This document shows, piece after piece, positions 8,850 to 25,224 of a DNA stretch of 32,000 nucleotides. The notes under the pieces are model-generated. The model saw only the letters and a list, made by a program, of their open reading frames with translations, did no database searches and was not told the DNA's origin. The stretch spans positions 2,970,001 to 3,002,000 of the forward strand of contig NC_017448.1 of NCBI RefSeq assembly GCF_000146505.1. Reading direction: 5' to 3'. How positions within the stretch are numbered: the stretch's first letter is position 1; each line of letters opens with the position of its first letter. The translations under genes were made by a program, and so were the position numbers. The DNA is from Fibrobacter succinogenes subsp. succinogenes S85. Its GTDB lineage: Bacteria; Fibrobacterota; Fibrobacteria; Fibrobacterales; Fibrobacteraceae.

Positions 8850-9017
8850 ATGAAACGTACATTCCTTTCTCTTGATATTTTTGATACTTGCTTAATTCGC
8901 AAATGTGGAGAGCCTCGTAAGATATGGGATTTGATGGCAGATGAACTCTTTGATAAAGAAGATTATTGTGGCAGATTGTCTTTTGTAGGTAATAGAAGTG
9001 TTGTTGAAAAAAAATGA
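8850..9017 (+). CDS. 55-aa fragment carrying HAD-like motif I (LSLDIFDTCLIR); N-terminal piece of the next ORF
   Basis: My manual translation from ATG 8850 is MKRTFLSLDIFDTCLIRKCGEPRKIWDLMADELFDKEDYCGRLSFVGNRSVVEKK*. The stop TGA 9015-9017 overlaps ATG 9014 (ATGA), directly after the A8 run at 9007-9014. Confidence 0.5.
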   Translation: MKRTFLSLDIFDTCLIRKCGEPRKIWDLMADELFDKEDYCGRLSFVGNRSVVEKK

Positions 9018-10771
9018 TGGATGAAAATTTTTACCCTACATTGAATGATATTTATGATGAGTTGAATGTATCTCAATGGGGATTTGAATCTAGTCAAATT
9101 ATGCAATTAGAGATGGAATTAGAGGAAAGAGAACTTTGTCCTAATCCCCAAATGTTAGATGTTGTAAATAAATATCGATTAGAGGGTTTTTCTGTTTCTT
9201 TTATATCAGATATGTATTTGCCGTCTGTTTTTCTAAAAAAAATATTGGTGAAATATGGATTCTGCAAAGAAAATGAAAAAGTGTATGTGTCTGCAGAATG
9301 TAAGGCTTCTAAAAATGATGGTTCTTTGTTTGATTATGTATTTAAAGATACGGGAACAAAAGCAAAACAATGGATTCATTATGGTGATAATGAAAAATCG
9401 GATTATTTGGAACCGAAGTCTAAGGGCGTAAAGTCATTTTGGATAAAAAATACGTTGTTTACTGACGAGGAAAAAAGTTGGATAAGTGATGCTCGGTTTT
9501 ATACTCATAAACATGAAATTGAATTGTGGGCGGGATTGTGTCGATATGCTAGGGTTAACCTAGATGATTCTGAATGTACTGAACGTGCTGTAGATTTGAT
9601 ATCTAGTTTGTACATCCCTTATGTCCGATATATAATGGATGAGTCAAAGGAACGAAATATAAATGTTCTTTATTTTCTAGCTAGAGACGCTCATATTTTT
9701 TTGCAAATCGCTGAACAGTTCAAAAATCGTTATCCCAATATTGAATTAAAATATTTAAAATTGTCTAGACGCTCTTTATACCCATGCGTTTTTTATGAAG
9801 TAAATGATTACGAGATGGAATTGACCATATGCCAATGTATTGCGCAAACGGCAAAAAAGAGTGTGGAGTATATCGGGTTGGAATGGGAATCTCTTTCCCC
9901 AAAAACACGAAACCAATTTAAAGCTGATTATCGTTTTACGTCGGCCAGGAAGGCAAAAGCTTTTGCAAAGTGCCTAATTGAGAATGACCGCAAAATGATT
10001 CTAGAAAAGTCATCTAATTATCGTGGAATGCTTTTGGGATATTTAAGACAAGAAGGAGTCTTAGGCTTCAGAAAAATAGCATCTGTTGATTTGGGGTGGA
10101 TTGGCAGTTGCCGGTGCATATTGAACTATATTCTAAGGAAAGAAAAATATCGAACTTGCGATGCGTTTTATTGGGGAGCGAGTAATATATTGATGAAGGG
10201 AACGATTGAAGATCGATTGTATGTATTTCAACGACAATACGATATTAGTTATTATTCAAATGGAAGTGTCCTTTTTTTTGAACATTATGCATCGATAAAT
10301 GATGAAGAGTCTACTGTGGGATATAAAAAAAAGAAGAATGATTTTTTCCCTATTAAGAAGAAAACTAATGATGTTAATAAAGAAATGGTTGTTCAAAATG
10401 AAAGAGTTTTGACTTGGTTTGCAAAAAAATATATGTCAACCGCATTTGATCGCGAGGCAATGCGAGATATCTTTTTGTGTTGTGGTATGCGGCAACTTCA
10501 AAATTTACAGGATAATCCTAAATCGCGGGATTTAAAATTTTTTTCTTTTATTACGACAGAAAATTTTGGATGTGTTATTAAACTTGTTCAGCCGCTCTTG
10601 CTAAAAAATATTTTTGCTTTGTTGGTGTGGGGGATACCGGCAGAACCTCAGTGGTTGCCTGCTGCGGTAAAAAAATCTTTCGGTCCCTTTGCTGAATTAT
10701 TTGTAAAAACGTACAATTATACATCGCGAACAAAATTGGCTCATTTGCTTCGTTGGTGGTGGAATAGATAG
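9014..10771 (+). CDS. HAD-superfamily-like protein (remaining HAD motifs) with a large uncharacterised C-terminal domain
   Basis: FSVSFISDMYLP (motif II-like S), ...ECKASKNDGSLF (K) and IHYGDNEKSDY (GDxxxD motif IV-like) lie within the first about 130 aa. The rest is not recognised. Adding one A to the A8 run fuses it in frame to 8850, giving about 640 aa. Confidence 0.65.
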   Translation: MMDENFYPTLNDIYDELNVSQWGFESSQIMQLEMELEERELCPNPQMLDVVNKYRLEGFSVSFISDMYLPSVFLKKILVKYGFCKENEKVYVSAECKASKNDGSLFDYVFKDTGTKAKQWIHYGDNEKSDYLEPKSKGVKSFWIKNTLFTDEEKSWISDARFYTHKHEIELWAGLCRYARVNLDDSECTERAVDLISSLYIPYVRYIMDESKERNINVLYFLARDAHIFLQIAEQFKNRYPNIELKYLKLSRRSLYPCVFYEVNDYEMELTICQCIAQTAKKSVEYIGLEWESLSPKTRNQFKADYRFTSARKAKAFAKCLIENDRKMILEKSSNYRGMLLGYLRQEGVLGFRKIASVDLGWIGSCRCILNYILRKEKYRTCDAFYWGASNILMKGTIEDRLYVFQRQYDISYYSNGSVLFFEHYASINDEESTVGYKKKKNDFFPIKKKTNDVNKEMVVQNERVLTWFAKKYMSTAFDREAMRDIFLCCGMRQLQNLQDNPKSRDLKFFSFITTENFGCVIKLVQPLLLKNIFALLVWGIPAEPQWLPAAVKKSFGPFAELFVKTYNYTSRTKLAHLLRWWWNR

Positions 10772-11846: not shown

Positions 11847-12764
11847 CTAATCCTGTTGGCTTAAATATAACTCAAGTTTCTCTTGTTGCTGCTTAAATTT
11901 TTGCTTGTTTGATTTTCGTAGACGTTCTAAATTCTGGACTTTCCATTGAATTGCGGGTAATGCTTGTACGTTGGGAATTGGAAAATTGGAGAAATCTTCA
12001 TTTAGCGCGAGAAAATCTAGAAATAGCTTTTTATATGGAACGAGATGTTCTTTGAGGTCTTTTTTCAATCGCAACAAAAAGTCCTGTAATTCAGAATAGT
12101 TGACCTGCTCGTCTGTCATGCCTGTGAATTCATTTTCAAATATGTCCTGATGGTCCTGAATTTCGCAATCTAGAAGCTCATGAATGGGTCGATTATGACC
12201 GAGTAGGTAAATGATGAAAATTTGAATTAATTTGTCGTTGATTCCGTGCTGAGCTTCATAGAATTTTTTTATATCAAATAGGTCTCGCGGGTGTTGTCTA
12301 TCCAATGCTGCGCAGAATTTTCCTGCATAAAGTTCCTCGAATGTTAGAATTCTCATTTTAGCGAATCCAAAGGAGTTTTGTACTTTCTGCGATACGGCTA
12401 ATTCTGTTGGTGTGCAAAGTGTTCCACGAATTGTGTAGTTTGGTTCGATTTTTATAGTAGCTTCGTTGTTGGAACAGATAATCTTCTTTTCGTTTGCCTG
12501 ACCTGTAATCGATGCTTGTAAGCCTTTTTTCTGAAGATTGCCTTGAATGCGTAGAAGGGCATTGTTTATGTTTTCAATTGCTGTTGTTCTTTTGTCGAGT
12601 GGTAAATACACCAAATCAAGATCAACGGAAAGTCTAGGCAAGTCCTGGTAAAACAGATTTATGGCGGAACCACCTTTTAGCGCAAAACAGGTCTCGTTTG
12701 CTACAATTGGAAGTGCGTTAACCAATAATGAAACTTGTTTTGTGTATTTTTCAGCGAAACTCAT
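11847..12764 (-). CDS. abiEii: AbiEii/AbiGii-family nucleotidyltransferase toxin (DUF1814)
   Basis: FALKGGSAINLFYQDLPRLSVDLDLVYLP is the GS-x(n)-DxD NTase motif of AbiEii. The gene lies immediately downstream (1-nt gap) of an AbiEi-like gene. Confidence 0.85.
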   Translation of the reverse strand: MSFAEKYTKQVSLLVNALPIVANETCFALKGGSAINLFYQDLPRLSVDLDLVYLPLDKRTTAIENINNALLRIQGNLQKKGLQASITGQANEKKIICSNNEATIKIEPNYTIRGTLCTPTELAVSQKVQNSFGFAKMRILTFEELYAGKFCAALDRQHPRDLFDIKKFYEAQHGINDKLIQIFIIYLLGHNRPIHELLDCEIQDHQDIFENEFTGMTDEQVNYSELQDFLLRLKKDLKEHLVPYKKLFLDFLALNEDFSNFPIPNVQALPAIQWKVQNLERLRKSNKQKFKQQQEKLELYLSQQD

Positions 12765-12765
12765 A

Positions 12766-13530
12766 TTAACCTAATTTAGGAATAACCAAATTGTATTTAG
12801 GGTAAAGTACACCTTCTTTGCCTATTTTGCGGATTCCGGAGCCGAGATCTATGTTGCTTTTGTCTAGAACGTTAGACCATTGCAAACCTGCGGTTTCTGC
12901 AAAACAGAGTAGAAGTCGTTTGACCTTTATAGAACTACATTTTTCCAGAAGTTCTTGCAATAGGGCTGTCTTTACGGAAATTATGGTTTCCGTTATGGCG
13001 AATGCTTCGGAAACAGTTATTTTTTTAGGGACGAGGTATAGAAGTTCTAACAGCGCTCGTTCCATTGACGGCACTTGTAATTTGAAATTTTCTCCTTTTT
13101 TCGTTTCCAAACCGATATCGGCAGGAAGGAAATCGGAATAGTTGATATCGGTGTTGTCCCCATAAACTTTCGTAAACCATGTAGGAACTTTCTTGCCGAG
13201 CGGGGTGAACAATTGAGTCCTATTTTCTGACTTTACATAATGCAGTTTGCCGTAATACAGGCTCAGTGCAGATGCTGCTCCTATATGGATGGTTGGTATT
13301 AGCTCTGCTTGAAGAGCGAATAGTGCTCCCATTATATCGGCGACTTCGTTTAGGCGGGTGTATGCCCCTGGCGCAATTCGGTTAAGCCAGCCTGATTTGA
13401 CGTATTCTGCGGCAAGCATGCGGCTAATCCCCATGGTAGCAAGCTGTCGTGAGGTTACTACCGTGTTTGCCGGTATCTGCTTCAATAGTTGTTTTATTTT
13501 TTTACTGTTTTGTATGTTCACAATATACAA
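12766..13530 (-). CDS. abiEi: AbiEi-family antitoxin / transcriptional regulator (type IV TA)
   Basis: The N-terminal wHTH VVTSRQLATMGISRMLAAEYVKSGWLNRIAPGAYTR is typical of AbiEi, and the protein is paired with AbiEii. The start is non-ATG (TTG 13530 or GTG 13521). Confidence 0.8.
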   Translation of the reverse strand: MYIVNIQNSKKIKQLLKQIPANTVVTSRQLATMGISRMLAAEYVKSGWLNRIAPGAYTRLNEVADIMGALFALQAELIPTIHIGAASALSLYYGKLHYVKSENRTQLFTPLGKKVPTWFTKVYGDNTDINYSDFLPADIGLETKKGENFKLQVPSMERALLELLYLVPKKITVSEAFAITETIISVKTALLQELLEKCSSIKVKRLLLCFAETAGLQWSNVLDKSNIDLGSGIRKIGKEGVLYPKYNLVIPKLG

Positions 13531-15634: not shown

Positions 15635-16402
15635 TCACTCCATAATAAAAGTGCATCCGTAAAATGCAAGGTAGTAAACAAGTATGCGGAACATTGCTGC
15701 GTTCCAAAAATTAAGAGCCCATTCGTGCGTAAATATGACTAAAACATTGTCTTGTATATGGGACCATACTTTTAATAACGGGAAAAGATGGTGTTCTGTT
15801 CTAAAATCAGTTTTTTCAAAGGTCATAGATGCGTACGATATCGCTTGCTTTTGTAGTAAGGAATCGTTTACTGATGGCGGTAGGGAGTAGCTGATTCGGT
15901 TGTCATCTGCGGAAAGTAATTTGGTTACCCCTTTACTTTTTAGAAAACTGATATCATCAAAAGAACTGTGAAAATAATGCAGTCTTAATGTTTTTGCTAT
16001 TAGGGATGGTGGGATATTGTTTTCAAAATAGAGATAACCGTTTTGAAAGTTTGAAGAATTGTCGTTTTTAGATTCAGGATTGTCGCTGTGATAGCCGATT
16101 TTGATCCAATTTGATTGGTTTAGCTCTTTTATGTACTTTGTTGGAATTTCTGATATGGCCCAATTTTCTGCGTTTGGAAATGTATATAGTGTGAATTTTG
16201 CTTCGGTAATGTCGTGGATTGATTTAAGATAGTGAAATGTCGGTTGGTCGTATATGGAACCGTATTTTTCGTTTTTCAAGTCAATAAATGATGTATAGAA
16301 ATCATCAATGGATAGATGTACCTCTTTCCCGTTTAGAAATGAAAATGGGAATGCAAAAAATAAAAAGAATAGAATTATTGGTATGATATATCTTTTTTTC
16401 AT
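15635..16402 (-). CDS. Signal-anchored hypothetical protein, possibly NodB/CE4-like polysaccharide deacetylase fold
   Basis: There is an N-terminal hydrophobic anchor (IIPIILFFLFFAFPF). Motifs in order are HLSIDD, GYHSDNPE, LRLHYF, SADDN and IFTHEW, loosely paralleling NodB motifs 1-5. ATGA overlap with the flippase gene. The functional call is weak. Confidence 0.45.
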   Translation of the reverse strand: MKKRYIIPIILFFLFFAFPFSFLNGKEVHLSIDDFYTSFIDLKNEKYGSIYDQPTFHYLKSIHDITEAKFTLYTFPNAENWAISEIPTKYIKELNQSNWIKIGYHSDNPESKNDNSSNFQNGYLYFENNIPPSLIAKTLRLHYFHSSFDDISFLKSKGVTKLLSADDNRISYSLPPSVNDSLLQKQAISYASMTFEKTDFRTEHHLFPLLKVWSHIQDNVLVIFTHEWALNFWNAAMFRILVYYLAFYGCTFIME

Positions 16403-17928
16403 TTTTTCAGCTTTTGCCGGAGTATAAGATATATCGCTCCGCGTTCTTCTTTAGAGAAGATGAAAAATAAATTGATTGATAATGCTACGATGGATATGAT
16501 GATGAATGATGATATAAATGAAAACCATGTGTCAATTGGCAGAATATTTTTAACTCCGTAACTAGTCAGGGTGACAATCAGCATGCCCAAACAACCTTTA
16601 CCCATGACGGGGAAGAATGTGTACCATTTTTGATTAAGACATGTGGCCCCATAAATAGTGGTGAAAAACATATTGCGTAATCCTCCCTGAATAGCCCCTG
16701 TAATGGCAATCGTCCAAACTCCTAGGTCTGTTGTTGCTAGGAGAATGAAGATTGCTAGGGTGTTCAAAATACCAGCGATTAATAGGACTATGGATGGAAT
16801 TTTAAGTTTATTCGTTGCTGGGAAAACTCCAAATATCGGATTGACGCTCCCGCCAATAATCATTGGTAAAATTGTTACCACGGTAAGCCAGTAAAGAAAA
16901 TTTGCATCTTCTCCAGGAACCCAAAGTGTATAGAATTCTTTGCTGTAAACTAATAAAAATCCTATCGGTATTCCGATTAGCAATCCGACAATTTTCATTG
17001 ATTTTTTGATTTCATATACAAGTTCTGACGTTTTATCTTGTGCTAATAGAATGTTGAATTGAGGAAAAAACGTTCCAGAAAGCATTGCCAATGCACTATA
17101 GATAAAAAGTGGTGCGGTCTTGGCTATGGAATAGCTTCCCATGACAGAAACGCCGATGAAAATATTAGTGATTAGTAAATCAACTTGCTGCAATAAAATG
17201 CTGCTTAATTGGTTTACGGAATTCCATATGCCTGAGAAAAAGACTTCTTTTAGATGAATTAAGGAAAAATGTTTTTGTGGGGCGAAGGTTAGTTCTGGTA
17301 ATAATTTTTTCTTGAAAGAAAGATTAAAAAATAAAAACAGGATAGCTGAAAAGAATGCTCCGATGCTTAAATAGACGATAGATGGTTTTAGGAAGTAAAA
17401 CAGGGCAAGGATGACTGCAACTCTTGCGCATTCAGCAATGACACTTCTTGATGCGGTCATATCAACTCTATTTTTTACGAAAGTTCCGATGCCTAGAATT
17501 CCTGTAAGAAGTCCGATGATTAACGATGCTGAACCAAATCCAAATAAATAGCGAACTTCGGTGATGAGATTTGTTGGTACAGTTATGAATGCGTCTGTAT
17601 AAATGATGAAAATGATTGCGGTGATTGTGAATATTACCGATAACAGTGTGTTTGCTACCCAGACTGAGTTAAAATATTTATTGGCCCCATCGATGTCCTG
17701 CTTGTATATTCGCATCGTGATAAAACGACCTGCCATGGAGCCGATTGCGGTTGTCAGTATGGACGAATAACCTATGATGCTGTTGATGAGGGGGATAAAC
17801 CCGTAAGCTTCTTTTCCGACAGTTCTAATGAGGTAGGGAGTTAGTAAAAATGAAATGATAAAATTCACCCCAAACGAGGTGATGTTGAAAAGAAGATTCT
17901 TGAGGGTTTGTGAAGAAGATGATGACAT
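16399..17928 (-). CDS. Wzx-like oligosaccharide flippase (MOP/polysaccharide biosynthesis protein family)
   Basis: A 509-aa protein with about 12-14 TM segments and short loops. It is the first gene of the glycan operon, with the size and topology of Wzx flippases. Confidence 0.7.
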   Translation of the reverse strand: MSSSSSQTLKNLLFNITSFGVNFIISFLLTPYLIRTVGKEAYGFIPLINSIIGYSSILTTAIGSMAGRFITMRIYKQDIDGANKYFNSVWVANTLLSVIFTITAIIFIIYTDAFITVPTNLITEVRYLFGFGSASLIIGLLTGILGIGTFVKNRVDMTASRSVIAECARVAVILALFYFLKPSIVYLSIGAFFSAILFLFFNLSFKKKLLPELTFAPQKHFSLIHLKEVFFSGIWNSVNQLSSILLQQVDLLITNIFIGVSVMGSYSIAKTAPLFIYSALAMLSGTFFPQFNILLAQDKTSELVYEIKKSMKIVGLLIGIPIGFLLVYSKEFYTLWVPGEDANFLYWLTVVTILPMIIGGSVNPIFGVFPATNKLKIPSIVLLIAGILNTLAIFILLATTDLGVWTIAITGAIQGGLRNMFFTTIYGATCLNQKWYTFFPVMGKGCLGMLIVTLTSYGVKNILPIDTWFSFISSFIIISIVALSINLFFIFSKEERGAIYLILRQKLKK

Positions 17929-18042: not shown

Positions 18043-18066
18043 AAACCCCTCGAAATCGAGGGGTTT
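18043..18066. other. Perfect 10-bp stem / 4-nt loop hairpin between divergent transcription units
   Basis: aaacccctcg-aaat-cgaggggttt read directly from the sequence. No convincing T-run follows on either strand. Confidence 0.5.
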
Positions 18067-18124
18067 GGTTTATTGAAAAGTGAAAAAATCCGGTTTAGGT
18101 TTGTTTTTATATATTTTATTAACG

Positions 18125-18346
18125 ATGGACGAAAAATCGCAAATCATCTATATGCAGACTAGGCTTACGCGTCTTGCGGCGGAAAGGTGGAAAATGTCGA
18201 TTCCGCAGGTTGCAACCCTTTTTGAAGAAAAGGGGGTGTATCATTATATCGCGAAGATGTGGGATTTGTTCCATGTAGAGGGTGATTTAGCTGTACTTGA
18301 CGATGTAAAGCAGTATCTTGACGCGAAGGGGGCTATCTGTGGTTGA
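18125..18346 (+). CDS. DUF3791-like small protein
   Basis: MDEKSQIIYMQTRLTRLAAERWKMSIPQVATLFEEKGVYHYIAKMWDLFHVEGDLAVLDDVKQYL matches my memory of DUF3791, which partners with DUF3990. Start is taken as ATG 18125, not the track start at 18080. Confidence 0.65.
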   Translation: MDEKSQIIYMQTRLTRLAAERWKMSIPQVATLFEEKGVYHYIAKMWDLFHVEGDLAVLDDVKQYLDAKGAICG

Positions 18347-18902
18347 TATCTTGAAAGATGGAGACATCCTTTACCATGGTAGCTTTTGCGAAGTACAAAC
18401 TCCTGATTTACAGATGTGCGCTCGTTATAAGGATTTTGGTCAAGGCTTTTACCTGACAACTGACAAGAAACAGGCCGAATCCTTTGCTAAAATTTCTACG
18501 CAGAAGGCTATAGAAAATGGCGTTGTCGCAAGTCAAAGATTTGGCGTTGTCTCTGCATTTCGGTATAATGTAGGCGTCAATCTTAATATCAAAATTTATG
18601 AGACTGCTGATTCATCTTGGCTTCATTGTGTAGTCGCTCATCGGAAGAAAAATGTTTTCGCTGATGTGCTGGGAGATTGCTCTAAATATGATGTTATTGG
18701 GGGCAAAATTGCAAATGATGCAACCAATAGTACGATTGTGACTTATATGGCGAATGCGTTTGGCGAGATTGGCTCTGCCTCTGCAGATGATATTTGCATT
18801 CGGTTGTTACTTCCAGAGCGATTAAAGAATCAGTATTGCTTCAAGTCTAATGCCGCATTGAACCAACTGTCGTTTATGGGGAGTGAACGTGTATGGATGT
18901 AA
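18339..18902 (+). CDS. DUF3990-like protein with ADP-ribosyltransferase-like H-G-S / G-x-G-F-Y motifs
   Basis: ILYHGS (His codon at 18375-18377), DFGQGFYLTTDKKQAESFA (18435-18458 and following), YDVIGGKIANDAT, ...LKNQYCF. The start is ambiguous (TTG 18318, GTG 18339 or TTG 18351). It overlaps both neighbouring genes. Confidence 0.7.
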   Translation: MVDILKDGDILYHGSFCEVQTPDLQMCARYKDFGQGFYLTTDKKQAESFAKISTQKAIENGVVASQRFGVVSAFRYNVGVNLNIKIYETADSSWLHCVVAHRKKNVFADVLGDCSKYDVIGGKIANDATNSTIVTYMANAFGEIGSASADDICIRLLLPERLKNQYCFKSNAALNQLSFMGSERVWM

Positions 18903-19147
18903 TGACTGATCGCATTAATGCAGCCATTGACTTGCTTACTACGATGGTTGTTGAAAGCATAGCAAAAGAGGATGGTTGTGATGCATCCGATGTTTTGCCT
19001 GGCTTTTTACGCTCGCATACGGGACAAATGCTCTATAATGAAAGTAGCAAGCTTTGGTGGGATGGCCCCGCATTTATAGAGGAACTATACCGTCAGGAAC
19101 TATCTAAAACGTCCGTTCGCGCACAACGTATTGCGGTGACTGGTTGA
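18893..19147 (+). CDS. Second DUF3791-like small protein
   Basis: ...FLRSHTGQMLYNESSKLWWDGPAFIEELY resembles the DUF3791 C-terminal pattern. The ATG overlaps the DUF3990 stop (ATGGATGTAA). The last about 14 codons run into the 3' end of the convergent GT gene. Confidence 0.55.
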   Translation: MDVMTDRINAAIDLLTTMVVESIAKEDGCDASDVLPGFLRSHTGQMLYNESSKLWWDGPAFIEELYRQELSKTSVRAQRIAVTG

Positions 19148-20024
19148 TGCTGATGTAGATGCGGCCGATGTATTCGCCGATGAGCCCTAGCAAAAGCATG
19201 ATCATGCCGCCGGTAAAGAGTATGGTGGCGAGCATGCTGGTGTAGCCAACGGGGACTTCGGGGAACATGAGTTTTTTGTAAATGACAAAGAGGCCTGCTC
19301 CGAAGCCAACGAGGGCGCAGAGAATGCCGATGAAGGTGGCGGCGCGGAGGGGCTTCACTGAGAATGCGGTAAATCCGTTAATCCAGAGTCGAATGAGGCC
19401 TGTGAGGGTGTAGCCGGATTCGCCTTCTATGCGGTGGCGGTGTTCGACTTCTACGTTGCCGAGGCTCTTGGTGGCGCGGAAAACGAGGCCACTGATGTAG
19501 GCGAAGGGGTGGGGGTAGCGCACGATTTCATCGGCGATGAACTTGCGCATGATAAAGAAACTCGTTGTGTGGAGTGTCTTGGGTTGGCCGATGATGGCTT
19601 CTGCCATTTTCTTGTTGACCCAGCTGCCAAAGCGGCGGAACAGGTGTTGCGCGGAGTGCCTGTAATAGCCGTAAACGACGTCGTAGCCTTCTTCGATTTT
19701 GTCGACGAGCTTGAAACTTTCGCTGGCGGGCGTTTGTCCGTCGTCATCGAGGCTAATGATGTAATCGCCTGTAGCTTGTCCGTAACCAGCCATCAGTGCG
19801 CTGTGCTGACCGAAATTTTTGGCGAGGCAGATTCCCTTGATGTGCGTGTCTTCGGCGGCGAGTTTCTTGATGACTTGCCATACGTTGTCTGGGCTGCAGT
19901 CGTTGACGAGTACGATTTCGTATTCGGTGCTTGGGCGCGTGGCGATTGTTTCGCGGATTTCTTGGATGACAGCCGAAATTGTGTTTTCGCTACGGTAACA
20001 GGGAATTACAAAAGAGAGTTTCAT
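19104..20024 (-). CDS. ArnC/GtrB/DPM1-like polyprenyl-phosphate glycosyltransferase (GT2 with C-terminal TM hairpin)
   Basis: LSFVIPCYRSENTI...EIVLVNDCSPDN...LAKNFGQHSALMAGY...ISLDDDGQTP, plus two C-terminal TM helices, matches the ArnC/GtrB architecture. Confidence 0.85.
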   Translation of the reverse strand: MKLSFVIPCYRSENTISAVIQEIRETIATRPSTEYEIVLVNDCSPDNVWQVIKKLAAEDTHIKGICLAKNFGQHSALMAGYGQATGDYIISLDDDGQTPASESFKLVDKIEEGYDVVYGYYRHSAQHLFRRFGSWVNKKMAEAIIGQPKTLHTTSFFIMRKFIADEIVRYPHPFAYISGLVFRATKSLGNVEVEHRHRIEGESGYTLTGLIRLWINGFTAFSVKPLRAATFIGILCALVGFGAGLFVIYKKLMFPEVPVGYTSMLATILFTGGMIMLLLGLIGEYIGRIYISINQSPQYVVRERTF

Positions 20025-23748: not shown

Positions 23749-25224
23749 TCATTTTACCTCCCAATGGCCGCCTTTGTCGGGGCCTACACGTTTAATGATT
23801 CCTTTTTGTTCCATTTTTTTCATATTCTTATTTACATGAATGCGGCTGATTCCTACGATAGTTGCAATTTCGTCTTGAGACACTGACGGATCTTGCTTAA
23901 TTATCAATAAAATTTTTCTTTGGTTTTCTGTAACCTTTTCTGTAACCTTTTCTGTAACCATTGGTGAGTTTTCGGATTCGTTTCTGGAAATTTCTTGTGT
24001 CTCTTTTCTCCAGATGATGGTTTTAAAGTCGTCGTCATCTTGGAATAGAGGCTTTTTTAAACCGTATTGTAGGCATTGCTTTACAATGTCTCCTGTCCCG
24101 GTTCCCGTCTTTTCTATGTATCCACAACGTTGCATGGCTTCTGCGATAAGAGGATTATGAGGAAGAGATTTGTGAGGCTTGTAGAGCTTATCTATTGTTA
24201 GTCCATGTGGTAATTGTCCTGGATTCCAAATTTCTAGACGATTTCTGAAAAGCATTACTTGAACGCTTGCTTTACTTGTGTAGTCGCGGTGACAGACTGC
24301 GTTGACAATGGCTTCTTTTACGGCCTCCATAGGAAGTTCTGGATGTGTGGGGACTGCTGCGGTTAGGCCTTGTGCTCTTGTTCCTATCCAATTGTCAACG
24401 CGGCTCAGTACAAAACTCGTTGCTTGGTCAATCAGTTGAAAGACATCGCCTTTGTAGATTTGTAATGAAGGAATTGGTTTTTCAACTTTGTTTCCATAAA
24501 ATTGGGCGCATTTTACTTCTGAGGTGATAAAGAATTTTTGAGGTTTTTTGCCGAAAAGGAGAATGGATGCGTTGGCTAATTTGCCTTTTTCATCAATCAT
24601 ATCTAAATGTCGTAAGAAGTTCTCAACGGGGGTGTCGGAACTTAGTTTAAAATTACGTCTTTGTTTTGAAAGCTGGATGAAATTTCGAACTTTCTCTTCG
24701 TCAATATCGTCTATGGTAGCCTCGTTATTTTTGGCTTGATCAAAAGGACCTGTTCGAATGAGTTCTTTCTCTTCCATGTAAAGAACAAGGGCTTTATATA
24801 CAGCATTTTTCAATTCATCATAGTCGGTAAATGAACGCCTCACGTTGTTCTTTTCAACTTTTTGAATGAATTTTATCTCTTTGGGGTGTCTTTGTGAATT
24901 GTCTTTTTTGATGAATATAAGGCATGTTTTATGTAGCTTGTTTGCAAGATTGTATTCCTTTTCTGTGGGGGATATGCTGTTTTTCGATGCCGTGCCATAT
25001 TCGTTACCCAAAAGTCCTAGATATATATCGCTTTTCTCGACTTCTTTAAGATAAATGTCATAGGTTTTGCTGTTGCTTGCTGGATGATTTTCAAAGATGA
25101 ATGGCTTGAAAAATAACGACAATATTGGGTCGTTCGTTAAGTATGAGAATAGCTGTTTGCGTTCTTCGGCAAATTCCCTTTGTACGCTTGAAATAAATAT
25201 TTGAAATTTCATAAATCCTTCCAT
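23749..25224 (-). CDS. DUF4062-like N-terminal domain fused to a COG2865-type HATPase_c_4 domain and C-terminal winged HTH
   Basis: The N-terminus KFQIFISSVQREFAEERKQL...SDIYLGLLGNEYG fits the DUF4062 pattern. The middle is ...ASILLFGKKPQKFF...CAQFYG. EAIVNAVCHRDY...LEIWNPGQLPHG...HNPLIAEAM...GYIEKTGTGTGDI fits the HATPase_c_4 pattern. The C-terminus is ENQRKILLIIKQDPSVSQDEIATIVGISRIHVNKNMKKMEQKGIIKR. aaggag lies 6 nt upstream of ATG 25224. Confidence 0.7.
   Translation of the reverse strand: MEGFMKFQIFISSVQREFAEERKQLFSYLTNDPILSLFFKPFIFENHPASNSKTYDIYLKEVEKSDIYLGLLGNEYGTASKNSISPTEKEYNLANKLHKTCLIFIKKDNSQRHPKEIKFIQKVEKNNVRRSFTDYDELKNAVYKALVLYMEEKELIRTGPFDQAKNNEATIDDIDEEKVRNFIQLSKQRRNFKLSSDTPVENFLRHLDMIDEKGKLANASILLFGKKPQKFFITSEVKCAQFYGNKVEKPIPSLQIYKGDVFQLIDQATSFVLSRVDNWIGTRAQGLTAAVPTHPELPMEAVKEAIVNAVCHRDYTSKASVQVMLFRNRLEIWNPGQLPHGLTIDKLYKPHKSLPHNPLIAEAMQRCGYIEKTGTGTGDIVKQCLQYGLKKPLFQDDDDFKTIIWRKETQEISRNESENSPMVTEKVTEKVTENQRKILLIIKQDPSVSQDEIATIVGISRIHVNKNMKKMEQKGIIKRVGPDKGGHWEVK
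23924..23959. repeat. 12-bp x3 perfect tandem repeat (ttttctgtaacc) encoding VTEK-VTEK-VTEN in the linker before the wHTH
   Basis: Read directly from the sequence. It is in frame within CDS 23749-25224. Confidence 0.9.

Follow-up and report, generated by a model that had tools for sequence, protein, structure and literature searches.

A mobile three-gene cassette in Fibrobacter succinogenes with a predicted ADP-ribosyltransferase-fold protein and a putative split partner

Introduction

The window analyzed here is a stretch of 32,000 nucleotides from Fibrobacter succinogenes subsp. succinogenes S85 (NC_017448.1, positions 2,970,001 to 3,002,000), in which three short plus-strand genes, designated g1, g2 and g3, are flanked on both sides by minus-strand glycan operons. 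We propose, with a probability of roughly 55%, that this cassette is a self-contained, mobile toxin–antitoxin (TA)-like or abortive-infection module, composed of a NAD-using effector and a bipartite neutralizer. The putative effector is the middle protein, g2, a member of the family DUF3990 for which an ADP-ribosyltransferase (ART) fold is predicted, and the neutralizer would be formed by g1 and g3 together.

All three genes match the PDC-M13 models of PADLOC and are adjacent and co-directional (judged by hidden Markov model matches and gene positions). PDC-M13 has the same three-gene make-up, with no difference in composition. In other words, the cassette is a further copy of a catalogued candidate defense system and not an unrecognized architecture. 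The PDC systems come from a “guilt-by-embedding” screen for genes nested in restriction–modification (RM), BREX and DISARM systems and are untested candidates (Payne et al., bioRxiv 10.1101/2024.01.29.577857), and PDC-M13 is among the most frequent calls in 6,530 rumen genomes, with 3,324 calls (PMC13356809).

ART-fold effectors such as DarT, CmdT and ParT are an emerging major theme in bacterial immunity and TA biology. The DUF3990 family is large and ranks with the candidate systems found most often in rumen genomes; its proposed catalytic triad is unusual, and it has a second use as the toxin tip of Rhs proteins. The window copy itself is ordinary, a catalogued candidate at a recombination-prone boundary between glycan operons; it will not surprise specialists, and, belonging to a very abundant family, it lends itself well to experiments. 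What is added here is the split-partner relation of g1 and g3, the assignment of an H-Y-Q triad together with a list of invariant residues, the delimitation of a 1-kb mobile block, and the chimeric tail of g3. The split partner and the candidate active-site list make the system testable with few constructs and point mutants.

Predicted Fold of the Middle Protein

The assignment of g2 to DUF3990, which a first-pass annotation had made from the letters of the sequence, agrees with Pfam (PF13151; E 9.4e-35, 120 bits against a cut-off of 32.2, profile positions 2-152 of 152). The protein also matches the PDC-M13 model at 1.4e-34 and the DUF3990 models of PDC-M10 and PDC-M42, and its match in PHROGs is weak only. 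Its N-terminal 45 residues resemble ART-PolyVal (PF18760, profile positions 8-50 of 140) below the threshold of that family (19.1 against 31.2 bits). Searches of the PDB with the g2 sequence, both as a single sequence and as a 55-sequence profile, returned nothing meaningful.

The AlphaFold2 model of g2, built on 34 homologues, has a mean predicted local distance difference test score (pLDDT) of 91.6 and a predicted template modeling score (pTM) of 0.86, and contains seven strands (residues 10-15, 37-40, 68-76, 84-86, 119-124, 163-168 and 177-186). When this model was compared with the PDB by Foldseek, the first 16 matches were all ARTs, with probabilities of 0.94-1.00 in the top 12. The matches include PARP2, ParT in complex with ParS, tankyrases, PARP12 and pertussis toxin, with diphtheria toxin lower down. 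In the viral database BFVD, a true DUF3990 homologue is followed by phage ART-PolyVal and viral PARP-like proteins (E 5e-6 to 5e-4, probability 1.0), the ART-PolyVal matches lying between 5e-6 and 1e-4, likewise at probability 1.0. Pfam, too, puts DUF3990 in its ART clan (PMC7955679). The first-pass annotation had stated, with some hesitation, that DUF3990 is grouped with ADP-ribosyl folds, and had named a structure search with an AlphaFold model as the check; the clan membership and the Foldseek matches both bear the statement out. On the strength of the model, g2 is predicted to have the ART fold, and we regard it as a putative NAD-using effector or toxin. A literature search turned up no experimental function for DUF3990, as had been stated at the outset.

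It should be mentioned that an alignment by hhalign of DUF3990 with a PARP1 catalytic sequence was set aside: it places LYHGS over LWHGS and DFGQGFY over MFGKGIY, only the N-terminal half is convincing and the C-terminal half is unreliable, and the probability is 2.7%.

Candidate Active Site

The DUF3990 family comprises 3,866 clusters at 50% identity (E<=1e-3). Conservation was read from an alignment of 55 sequences, which are representatives of 50%-identity clusters and reach down to 26% identity. H13 of the H-G-S motif, in strand 1 (residues 10-15), is present in 55/55 sequences, and Y38, in strand 2 (residues 37-40) after D-F-G-x-G-F, in 54/54. The residues around them are nearly as constant: S or T at position 15 in 51/55, D32-F33-G34 in 55/55, and G36 and F37 in 53/55 each. 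Further along the protein, W94 and G122 are invariant (55/55 each), R102 is found in 54 of the 55 sequences, D or E at position 118, at the front of strand 119-124, also in 54, and D127 in 51. Q165, in the penultimate strand, is again invariant (55/55) and is preceded by D or N in 46/55. The key residues of g2 itself can thus be written as H13-G-S, D32-F-G-x-G-F-Y38, W94, R102, D118, G122, D127 and N164-Q165.

In PARPs, HGS stands in strand 1 and YFA in strand 2, and the H-Y-[EDQ] clade of ARTs defined by Aravind, which admits Gln at the third position, is recognized by motif I, H-x-[ST] in strand 1, by the motif II Tyr in strand 2, and by motif III, an E, D or Q that stands at the front of core strand 5. 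The first two motifs are present in g2. The early proposal that H-G-S and G-x-G-F-Y are NAD-pocket elements is consistent with the position of the two residues in strands 1 and 2, as in PARP, and with their conservation throughout the alignment. The same proposal had placed g2 in the H-Y-E clade; here the H and the Y stand, whereas the Glu does not. The strand K-N-Q165-Y-C-F-K of g2 is collinear with the PARP strand Y-x-E-Y-[VI]-[VI]-[FY], and because N-Q165-Y-C-F lines up with N-E-Y-I-V of PARP1, the triad is most likely H-Y-Q, with Q165 at the position of the PARP catalytic Glu.

Might g2 then be an ART-like pseudo-enzyme without catalytic activity, whose sole function is to bind NAD, ADP-ribose or a nucleotide signal, with the trio serving as a sensor or adaptor? 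There are precedents, since natural ART-like domains without the Glu can be inactive, and both TASOR (L-Y-Q) and PARP13 are listed as such (PMC7955679). We consider this decidedly unlikely for g2, because H and Y are strictly kept and the invariant polar residues D32, R102, D118, D127 and Q165 look like a selected active site; the H-Y-[EDQ] clade, moreover, contains Gln variants, and activity is implied by the role that DUF3990 has as a toxin domain in Rhs proteins.

Two Small Proteins as Proposed Halves of One Partner

g1 belongs to DUF3791 (Pfam PF12668; E 1.2e-10, 41.7 bits against a cut-off of 25) and matches the PADLOC models PDC-M13C/A at E 3e-8; the invariant residues of its family are R16, F33 and H50. 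g3 matches the models PDC-M13B/C at E 3e-9 over residues 4-71, and its family keeps S41, W55, G58 and P59 without exception. No match to g3 was found in Pfam, NCBIfam or PHROGs, and NCBIfam holds no model for any of the three proteins. Both outer proteins had at first been taken as DUF3791-like. This is right for g1; for g3, it was rejected. g3 has no PF12668 match, none of its 76 homologues matches DUF3791 (0/76), and a Pfam scan of these homologues gave only sub-threshold matches to DUF2164. BLASTP of g1 against g3 found nothing, profiles built from the 76 g1-like and the 76 g3-like proteins did not cross-match, and two hhalign runs of the g3 family against the g1 family gave probabilities of <1%. 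By these sequence comparisons, g3 represents a separate family without a Pfam model. Both g1 and g3 are small and all-helical, and they are unrelated to each other.

A two-gene variant of the cassette suggests how these two proteins belong together. On plasmid pBF9343 of Bacteroides fragilis (locus L081, NC_006873.1, 23193-24400), a single 149-aa protein annotated as DUF3791 lies 5' of DUF3990, with a 4-nt overlap; the same arrangement of a g3-like/DUF3791 fusion followed by DUF3990 is found on a 7.6-kb plasmid of P. vulgatus (L082). Residues 17-77 of the 149-aa protein correspond to the g3 family (hhalign probability 94.9%, E 4.7e-8) and residues 86-148 to the g1 family (95.7%, E 1.1e-8). HMMER with the PADLOC models divides the protein in the same way, into a g3-type part (residues 12-82) and a g1-type part (81-148), with E-values of 1e-13 to 1e-17. 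Because the g3-like and g1-like domains are fused on Bacteroides plasmids, g1 and g3 appear to be the split halves of a single partner, placed on either side of the effector gene. We propose g1 as the first half of this bipartite partner, a putative antitoxin, and g3 as its second half. The AlphaFold2 model of the fused Bacteroides partner is all-helical, with a pLDDT of 68.8 overall and of 83-88 in the DUF3791 half; a Foldseek search of the PDB with this model found nothing (best E 3.2).

Conservation of the Trio and Its Carriers

At least 574 loci came up in a scan of one genome per species, and the analysis covers the 80 that were retrieved (numbered L001 onward). They fall into six groups, in six phyla: Fibrobacter, Lachnospiraceae and other Clostridia, Treponema, Bacteroidota, Anaerolineae, and Eggerthellaceae. 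The unit is carried by chromosomes, by plasmids and by some prophage-like contigs. A g1-like open reading frame (ORF) lies directly 5' of DUF3990 in 76/80 loci, and a g3-like ORF directly 3' in 76/80. When the misses were re-examined, five proved to be contig ends, two loci (L053 and L077) do carry the gene, and one (L060) has lost g3 along with the end of g2. The order g1-like/DUF3990/g3-like therefore holds in 74 of the 75 loci not cut by a contig end, and the full trio is also present on 19/20 viral-contig loci from IMG/VR, in line with the expectation that the three genes would be conserved as a unit. g1 and g2 overlap in 71/76 loci, mostly by 4 or 8 nt, and g2 and g3 in 56/76, mostly by 10 or 13 nt.

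DUF3990 is also carried by 86 plasmids of PLSDB, 42 of them from Bacteroides and 15 from Clostridium, and 28 of the 86 are conjugative. On pBF9343, the module is followed directly by two genes, a small hypothetical one and one of the zeta-toxin family, and the P. vulgatus plasmid, which is mobilizable, holds the module and little beyond replication and mobilization genes.

The immediate neighbors in the 80 loci are heterogeneous (162 Pfam families in 142 proteins). A minority are TA or defense genes (AbiEii-like AAA_21, MADS, AriA, Avs2, HicB) or belong to mobile elements (DUF3847), and a conserved defense-island context across the 80 loci was not found. Of the neighborhood survey foreseen in the first-pass annotation, then, the flanking small pair was recovered (though not as a pair of DUF3791 proteins), whereas co-localization with defense genes amounts to scattered genes.

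Some further loci were observed in passing. L079 (395-2546) holds two DUF3990 genes, and in 12 viral-contig loci (L088, L090-L100), a second g1-like ORF follows right after g3, ~800 nt 3' of the first cassette; the second copies suggest tandem arrays of paralogous cassettes. One protein from outside the window (P0259, 281 aa) has an N-terminal segment ending in ...LDHLITLHQRKQKLL joined to a DUF3990 domain. We take this segment to resemble the conserved C-terminus of a type I RM specificity subunit and, if so, the copy is embedded directly behind an hsdS gene. Geobacillus virus E3 encodes a 202-aa DUF3990 protein, GP30 (L103, KP144388.1, 25661-26269; E 8.5e-30). The H, Y, D and Q residues are retained in it, and its gene adjoins an integrase-like gene.

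The phage and plasmid copies bring up another explanation, in which the cassette is an offensive or anti-defense weapon of mobile elements, g2 modifying components of the host or of competitors to the advantage of the element and g1 and g3 acting as immunity proteins or chaperones. The closest structural relatives of g2 are phage ART-PolyVal domains, E3 GP30 occurs alone, and the module sits on conjugative plasmids and on 20 viral contigs. We nevertheless find this quite unlikely: the majority of copies lie by themselves on chromosomes, where no delivery or polyvalent context surrounds them (at least 574 genome loci against 20 viral contigs), and the ART-PolyVal score of g2 stays below the Pfam cut-off.

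A 1-kb Mobile Block in Fibrobacter

Alignment by blastn with the loci of close relatives delimits the mobile unit. L002 shares only positions 18096-19101 of the window, at 84% identity, and both of its flanks are unrelated. L003 shares 18103-19101, after which an extra ABC-2 transporter gene precedes the GT2 operon. L001, whose g2 is 96% identical, shares the cassette and the downstream operon, and its upstream gene differs. Since the block 18096-19101 is common to these relatives and the flanks differ, the unit of inheritance is the 1-kb block, and among the Fibrobacter relatives the cassette behaves, judged from these alignments, as a horizontally mobile unit.

The right breakpoint (19101/19102) falls within the 3' end of g3, at a distance of 2 nt from the stop codon of the convergent GT2 gene (19104-19106), so that the final 14 residues of g3 in the window are translated from the antisense strand of GT2. 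In L002 and L003, g3 ends in ...ELARGH* or ...ELAHGH*, and a native g3 ends ~72-75 residues in; the native part of the window g3 runs from residue 1 to ~70 (nt 19101). At L077 (6533-8485), g3 reads without a stop into a neighboring gene for an AMP-binding enzyme. This was considered as a second informative fusion and rejected, as it appears to be junction read-through and not a functional fusion. Recombination may recur at the 3' end of g3, where a junction was seen in two contexts, that of the window and L001 and that of L077.

Polysaccharide genes on either side of the cassette in the window, L001 and L003 could be taken to mean that it is part of glycan-biosynthesis loci, for example as a capsule or O-antigen regulator. 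This is highly improbable, because the neighbors in the 80 loci are almost all unrelated to glycan synthesis, and because the position shifts even within Fibrobacter, being between the ABC-2 transporter and GT2 genes in L001 and outside the ABC-2 gene in L003. The cassette also lies on the strand opposite to the flanking genes and differs from them in GC content.

Comparison with Known Systems

The nearest named structural relatives of g2 are the ART-PolyVal domains, and the HGS...GxGFY half of g2 matches their Pfam model. g2 is not a member of that family (see the scores above), and whereas ART-PolyVal is a domain of the giant multidomain polyvalent proteins of phages and conjugative elements, g2 is a stand-alone protein of 187 aa with two small partners.

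ParST (PDB 6D0H) provides the functional model that we propose for the cassette. ParT, the second-best solved match of g2 (probability 0.98, TM 0.45-0.5), is a small ART toxin that is neutralized through direct binding by the small helical protein ParS. Unlike ParST, the cassette has no RES or ParS/DUF2384 signature, its candidate triad is H-Y-Q as against R-E-S, and its partner is split into two genes.

With PARPs and tankyrases, g2 shares the predicted fold and the succession of HGS, then G-x-G-aromatic-Y, then an N-[E/Q]-Y-h-h strand. It differs from them in sequence (~10% identity), in the Gln that takes the place of the catalytic Glu, and in having no helical regulatory domain. Two helical inserts, residues 89-117 and 125-160, are specific to the g2 family and carry the invariant W94, R102 and D127.

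DarTG and CmdTAC (PMC8120803, PMC11618068) share the concept of an ART effector that is restrained by co-encoded partners and ADP-ribosylates nucleic acid, and CmdTAC is tripartite, as is the cassette. No match of g1, g2 or g3 to the PADLOC models of DarT, DarG or CmdTAC was found at E<=1, and Pfam and PADLOC scans of the cassette detected no macrodomain, SecB-like or Xre partner. The partners in those systems differ from the ones in the cassette, which are helical proteins of 70 aa and belong to unrelated families.

DUF3990 also occurs as the C-terminal variable toxin domain of type VI secretion system Rhs effectors, such as Serratia Rhs5 and RhsA of Enterobacter bugandensis, and papers from 2023-2025 still describe its function there as unknown. 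The Rhs effectors are secreted and have a downstream immunity gene; they are likened to g2 by the Pfam domain only. The genomic traits of type II TA systems, namely small, adjacent, overlapping, mobile and plasmid-borne genes, are all found in the cassette and its relatives. The first-pass annotation had spoken of a TA or defense-module architecture from the gene arrangement, a view with which the PDC-M13 match, the carriage on plasmids and the role of DUF3990 as an Rhs toxin domain agree.

Proposed Mechanism and Its Weak Points

How might such a module work? By analogy with ParS and ParT, g1 and g3 would assemble as one partner that binds g2 and keeps it inactive, in the manner of a type II antitoxin. 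Translational coupling from g1 to g2 to g3 would ensure that the effector is not made without both halves of the partner. Should a phage infect the cell or the element be lost, the partner would be lost or displaced and g2 set free, and the freed protein would use NAD+ to ADP-ribosylate an essential macromolecule, or would consume NAD+. Growth would then stop, with abortive infection or post-segregational killing as the outcome. It is speculative, but the Gln in place of Glu may favor mono-transfer, possibly to a nucleic acid or phosphate nucleophile, and not PARP-like chain elongation. The TA-like reading fits the copy on pBF9343 beside a zeta-toxin module and the decay of g2 itself in L057 and L060, and it also draws on the AbiE system in the same glycan locus (see below), the use of DUF3990 as an Rhs toxin tip and the PDC-M13 matches.

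A bolder version can be put forward only tentatively. DUF3990 would be an active H-Y-Q ART acting on nucleic acid or phosphate, with a two-piece antitoxin encoded on either side, and would represent an abortive-infection or addiction system that is new and very widespread among anaerobes of the gut and rumen, with a neutralization and trigger logic unlike that of DarTG, ParST and CmdTAC.

Several observations weigh against the TA-like reading. Replacement of the catalytic Glu by Gln weakens classical ARTs. The equivalence of Q165 with E988 of PARP is drawn from strand order and a local motif, and D118 or D127 could be the third residue instead. The Foldseek TM-scores of g2 against solved ARTs are modest (0.36-0.5), and the fused-partner model has no similarity to known antitoxins that Foldseek could detect in the PDB. 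Defense genes are only a minority among the immediate neighbors, an association that is weak in our sample. E3 GP30 is a solo DUF3990 protein, with no g1- or g3-like ORF within 2.5 kb. In two loci, g3 of L034 (6519-6784) and g1 of L045 (1527-1979), the partner is split by an apparent frameshift or stop while g2 looks intact; this could be sequencing error, or g2 could be tolerated without a complete partner.

Some of these observations would also suit a non-toxic enzyme complex, in which g1 and g3 are regulatory or specificity subunits, or substrates, of the ART-like enzyme. The enzyme would carry out a modification (of RNA or DNA ends, for instance) that is either housekeeping or specific to the element, or would act as a NAD-linked signaling switch, and the trio would not be a poison with its antidote. 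The Gln at the likely catalytic position, the disrupted partners in L034 and L045, and a partner unlike any known antitoxin all speak for such a complex. The ART of CmdTAC is, according to an author correction, also not highly toxic alone (PMC11445053). We regard this explanation as unlikely, since the patchy mobile spread, the unrelated neighbors and the plasmid copy by a zeta-toxin module are atypical for housekeeping functions, and since DUF3990 is reused as an Rhs toxin tip.

Gene Layout and Sequence Features of the Locus

The features of the locus are collected in Table 1. The ORF positions and the Pfam assignments of the flanks agree with the early description of three plus-strand ORFs standing alone between minus-strand glycan operons, and the overlapping stop and start codons that had been pointed out can be read directly from the sequence. 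The GTG of g2 overlaps the end of g1 by 8 nt (GTGGTTGA; the g1 stop is at 18344-18346), and the ATG of g3 overlaps the end of g2 by 10 nt (g2 stop, 18900-18902). Shine-Dalgarno (SD)-like motifs precede g2 and g3; 5' of g1, none was seen in the sequence. The mechanically called ORF of g2 begins at TTG 18318. The GTG at 18339 is favored as the start because the g2 homologues are mostly 186-189 aa long, and the residues first numbered H20 and Y45 from the TTG become H13 and Y38, their identity being unchanged.

Upstream, beyond the flippase gene, follow an ORF without a Pfam match and radical-SAM, pyruvyl-transferase and GT2 genes, all on the minus strand. The downstream minus-strand genes encode GT2, a GFO/IDH/MocA oxidoreductase, an ATP-grasp protein and a DegT aminotransferase. 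The GC content rises from 0.375 upstream through 0.419 in the cassette to 0.524 downstream, and the cassette thus does lie, as had been noticed from the letters, at the junction of AT-rich and GC-richer DNA.

The AT-rich leader (~30 nt) is the only upstream sequence common to the window, L002 and L003. A scan of the region for sigma-70 promoters and terminators gave scores no better than those of shuffled sequence. Directly 3' of the GC-rich hairpin is a T-rich tract, GGTTTATT. The hairpin, which may be a terminator or a recombination site, is common to L001 and absent from the junction alignments of L002 and L003, and it is uncertain whether it belongs to the cassette.

Table 1. Positions in the window of the cassette, its sequence features and other loci.
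Feature	Position	Strand	Remarks
g1	18125-18346	+	73 aa
g2	18339-18902	+	187 aa, GTG start
g3	18893-19147	+	84 aa, ATG start
Conserved mobile DNA block	18096..19101	+	from blastn against close Fibrobacter loci
AT-rich leader GTTTTTATATATTTTATTAACG	18096..18124	+	directly 5' of g1; presumed promoter/leader
Non-native g3 tail SKTSVRAQRIAVTG	19102..19147	+	last 14 residues; antisense of convergent GT2 3' end
GC-rich hairpin AAACCCCTCG-AAAT-CGAGGGGTTT	18043..18066	+	perfect 10-bp stem; left of cassette, in divergent intergenic region
SD-like AAGGGGG	18326-18332		6 nt 5' of g2 start
SD-like GGGGAG	18878-18883		9 nt 5' of g3 start
Polysacc_synt flippase gene	16399-17928	-	upstream flank
GT2 gene	19104-20024	-	downstream flank
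585-aa ORF	9014-10771	+	most AT-rich part of the window, GC ~0.33
AbiEii gene	11847-12764	-	in upstream glycan operon
AbiEi gene	12766-13530	-	in upstream glycan operon
255-aa ORF	15635-16402	-	in glycan operon
491-aa protein gene	23749-25224	-	GC dip (0.39) between GC-rich blocks

Other Loci in the Window

Two ORFs of the window, of 585 and 255 aa, have no match in Pfam (E<=1e-5) or PADLOC (E<=1e-3).

Between the GT2 and pyruvyl-transferase genes of the upstream glycan operon lies a complete type IV TA/abortive-infection pair, AbiEi and AbiEii (Pfam E-values 1e-35 and 1e-30; PADLOC E-values 4e-66 and 5e-108). With this pair, the glycan locus carries more than one TA or defense insertion.

Downstream of the cassette, a 491-aa protein combines DUF4062, HATPase_c_4 (“RecG C-terminal”-like) and a winged helix-turn-helix domain. 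It gives partial PADLOC matches to the pAgo-associated SIR2-PNTD and CARF-type models, with E-values from 1e-13 to 1e-5, and its gene may mark another defense or regulatory island.

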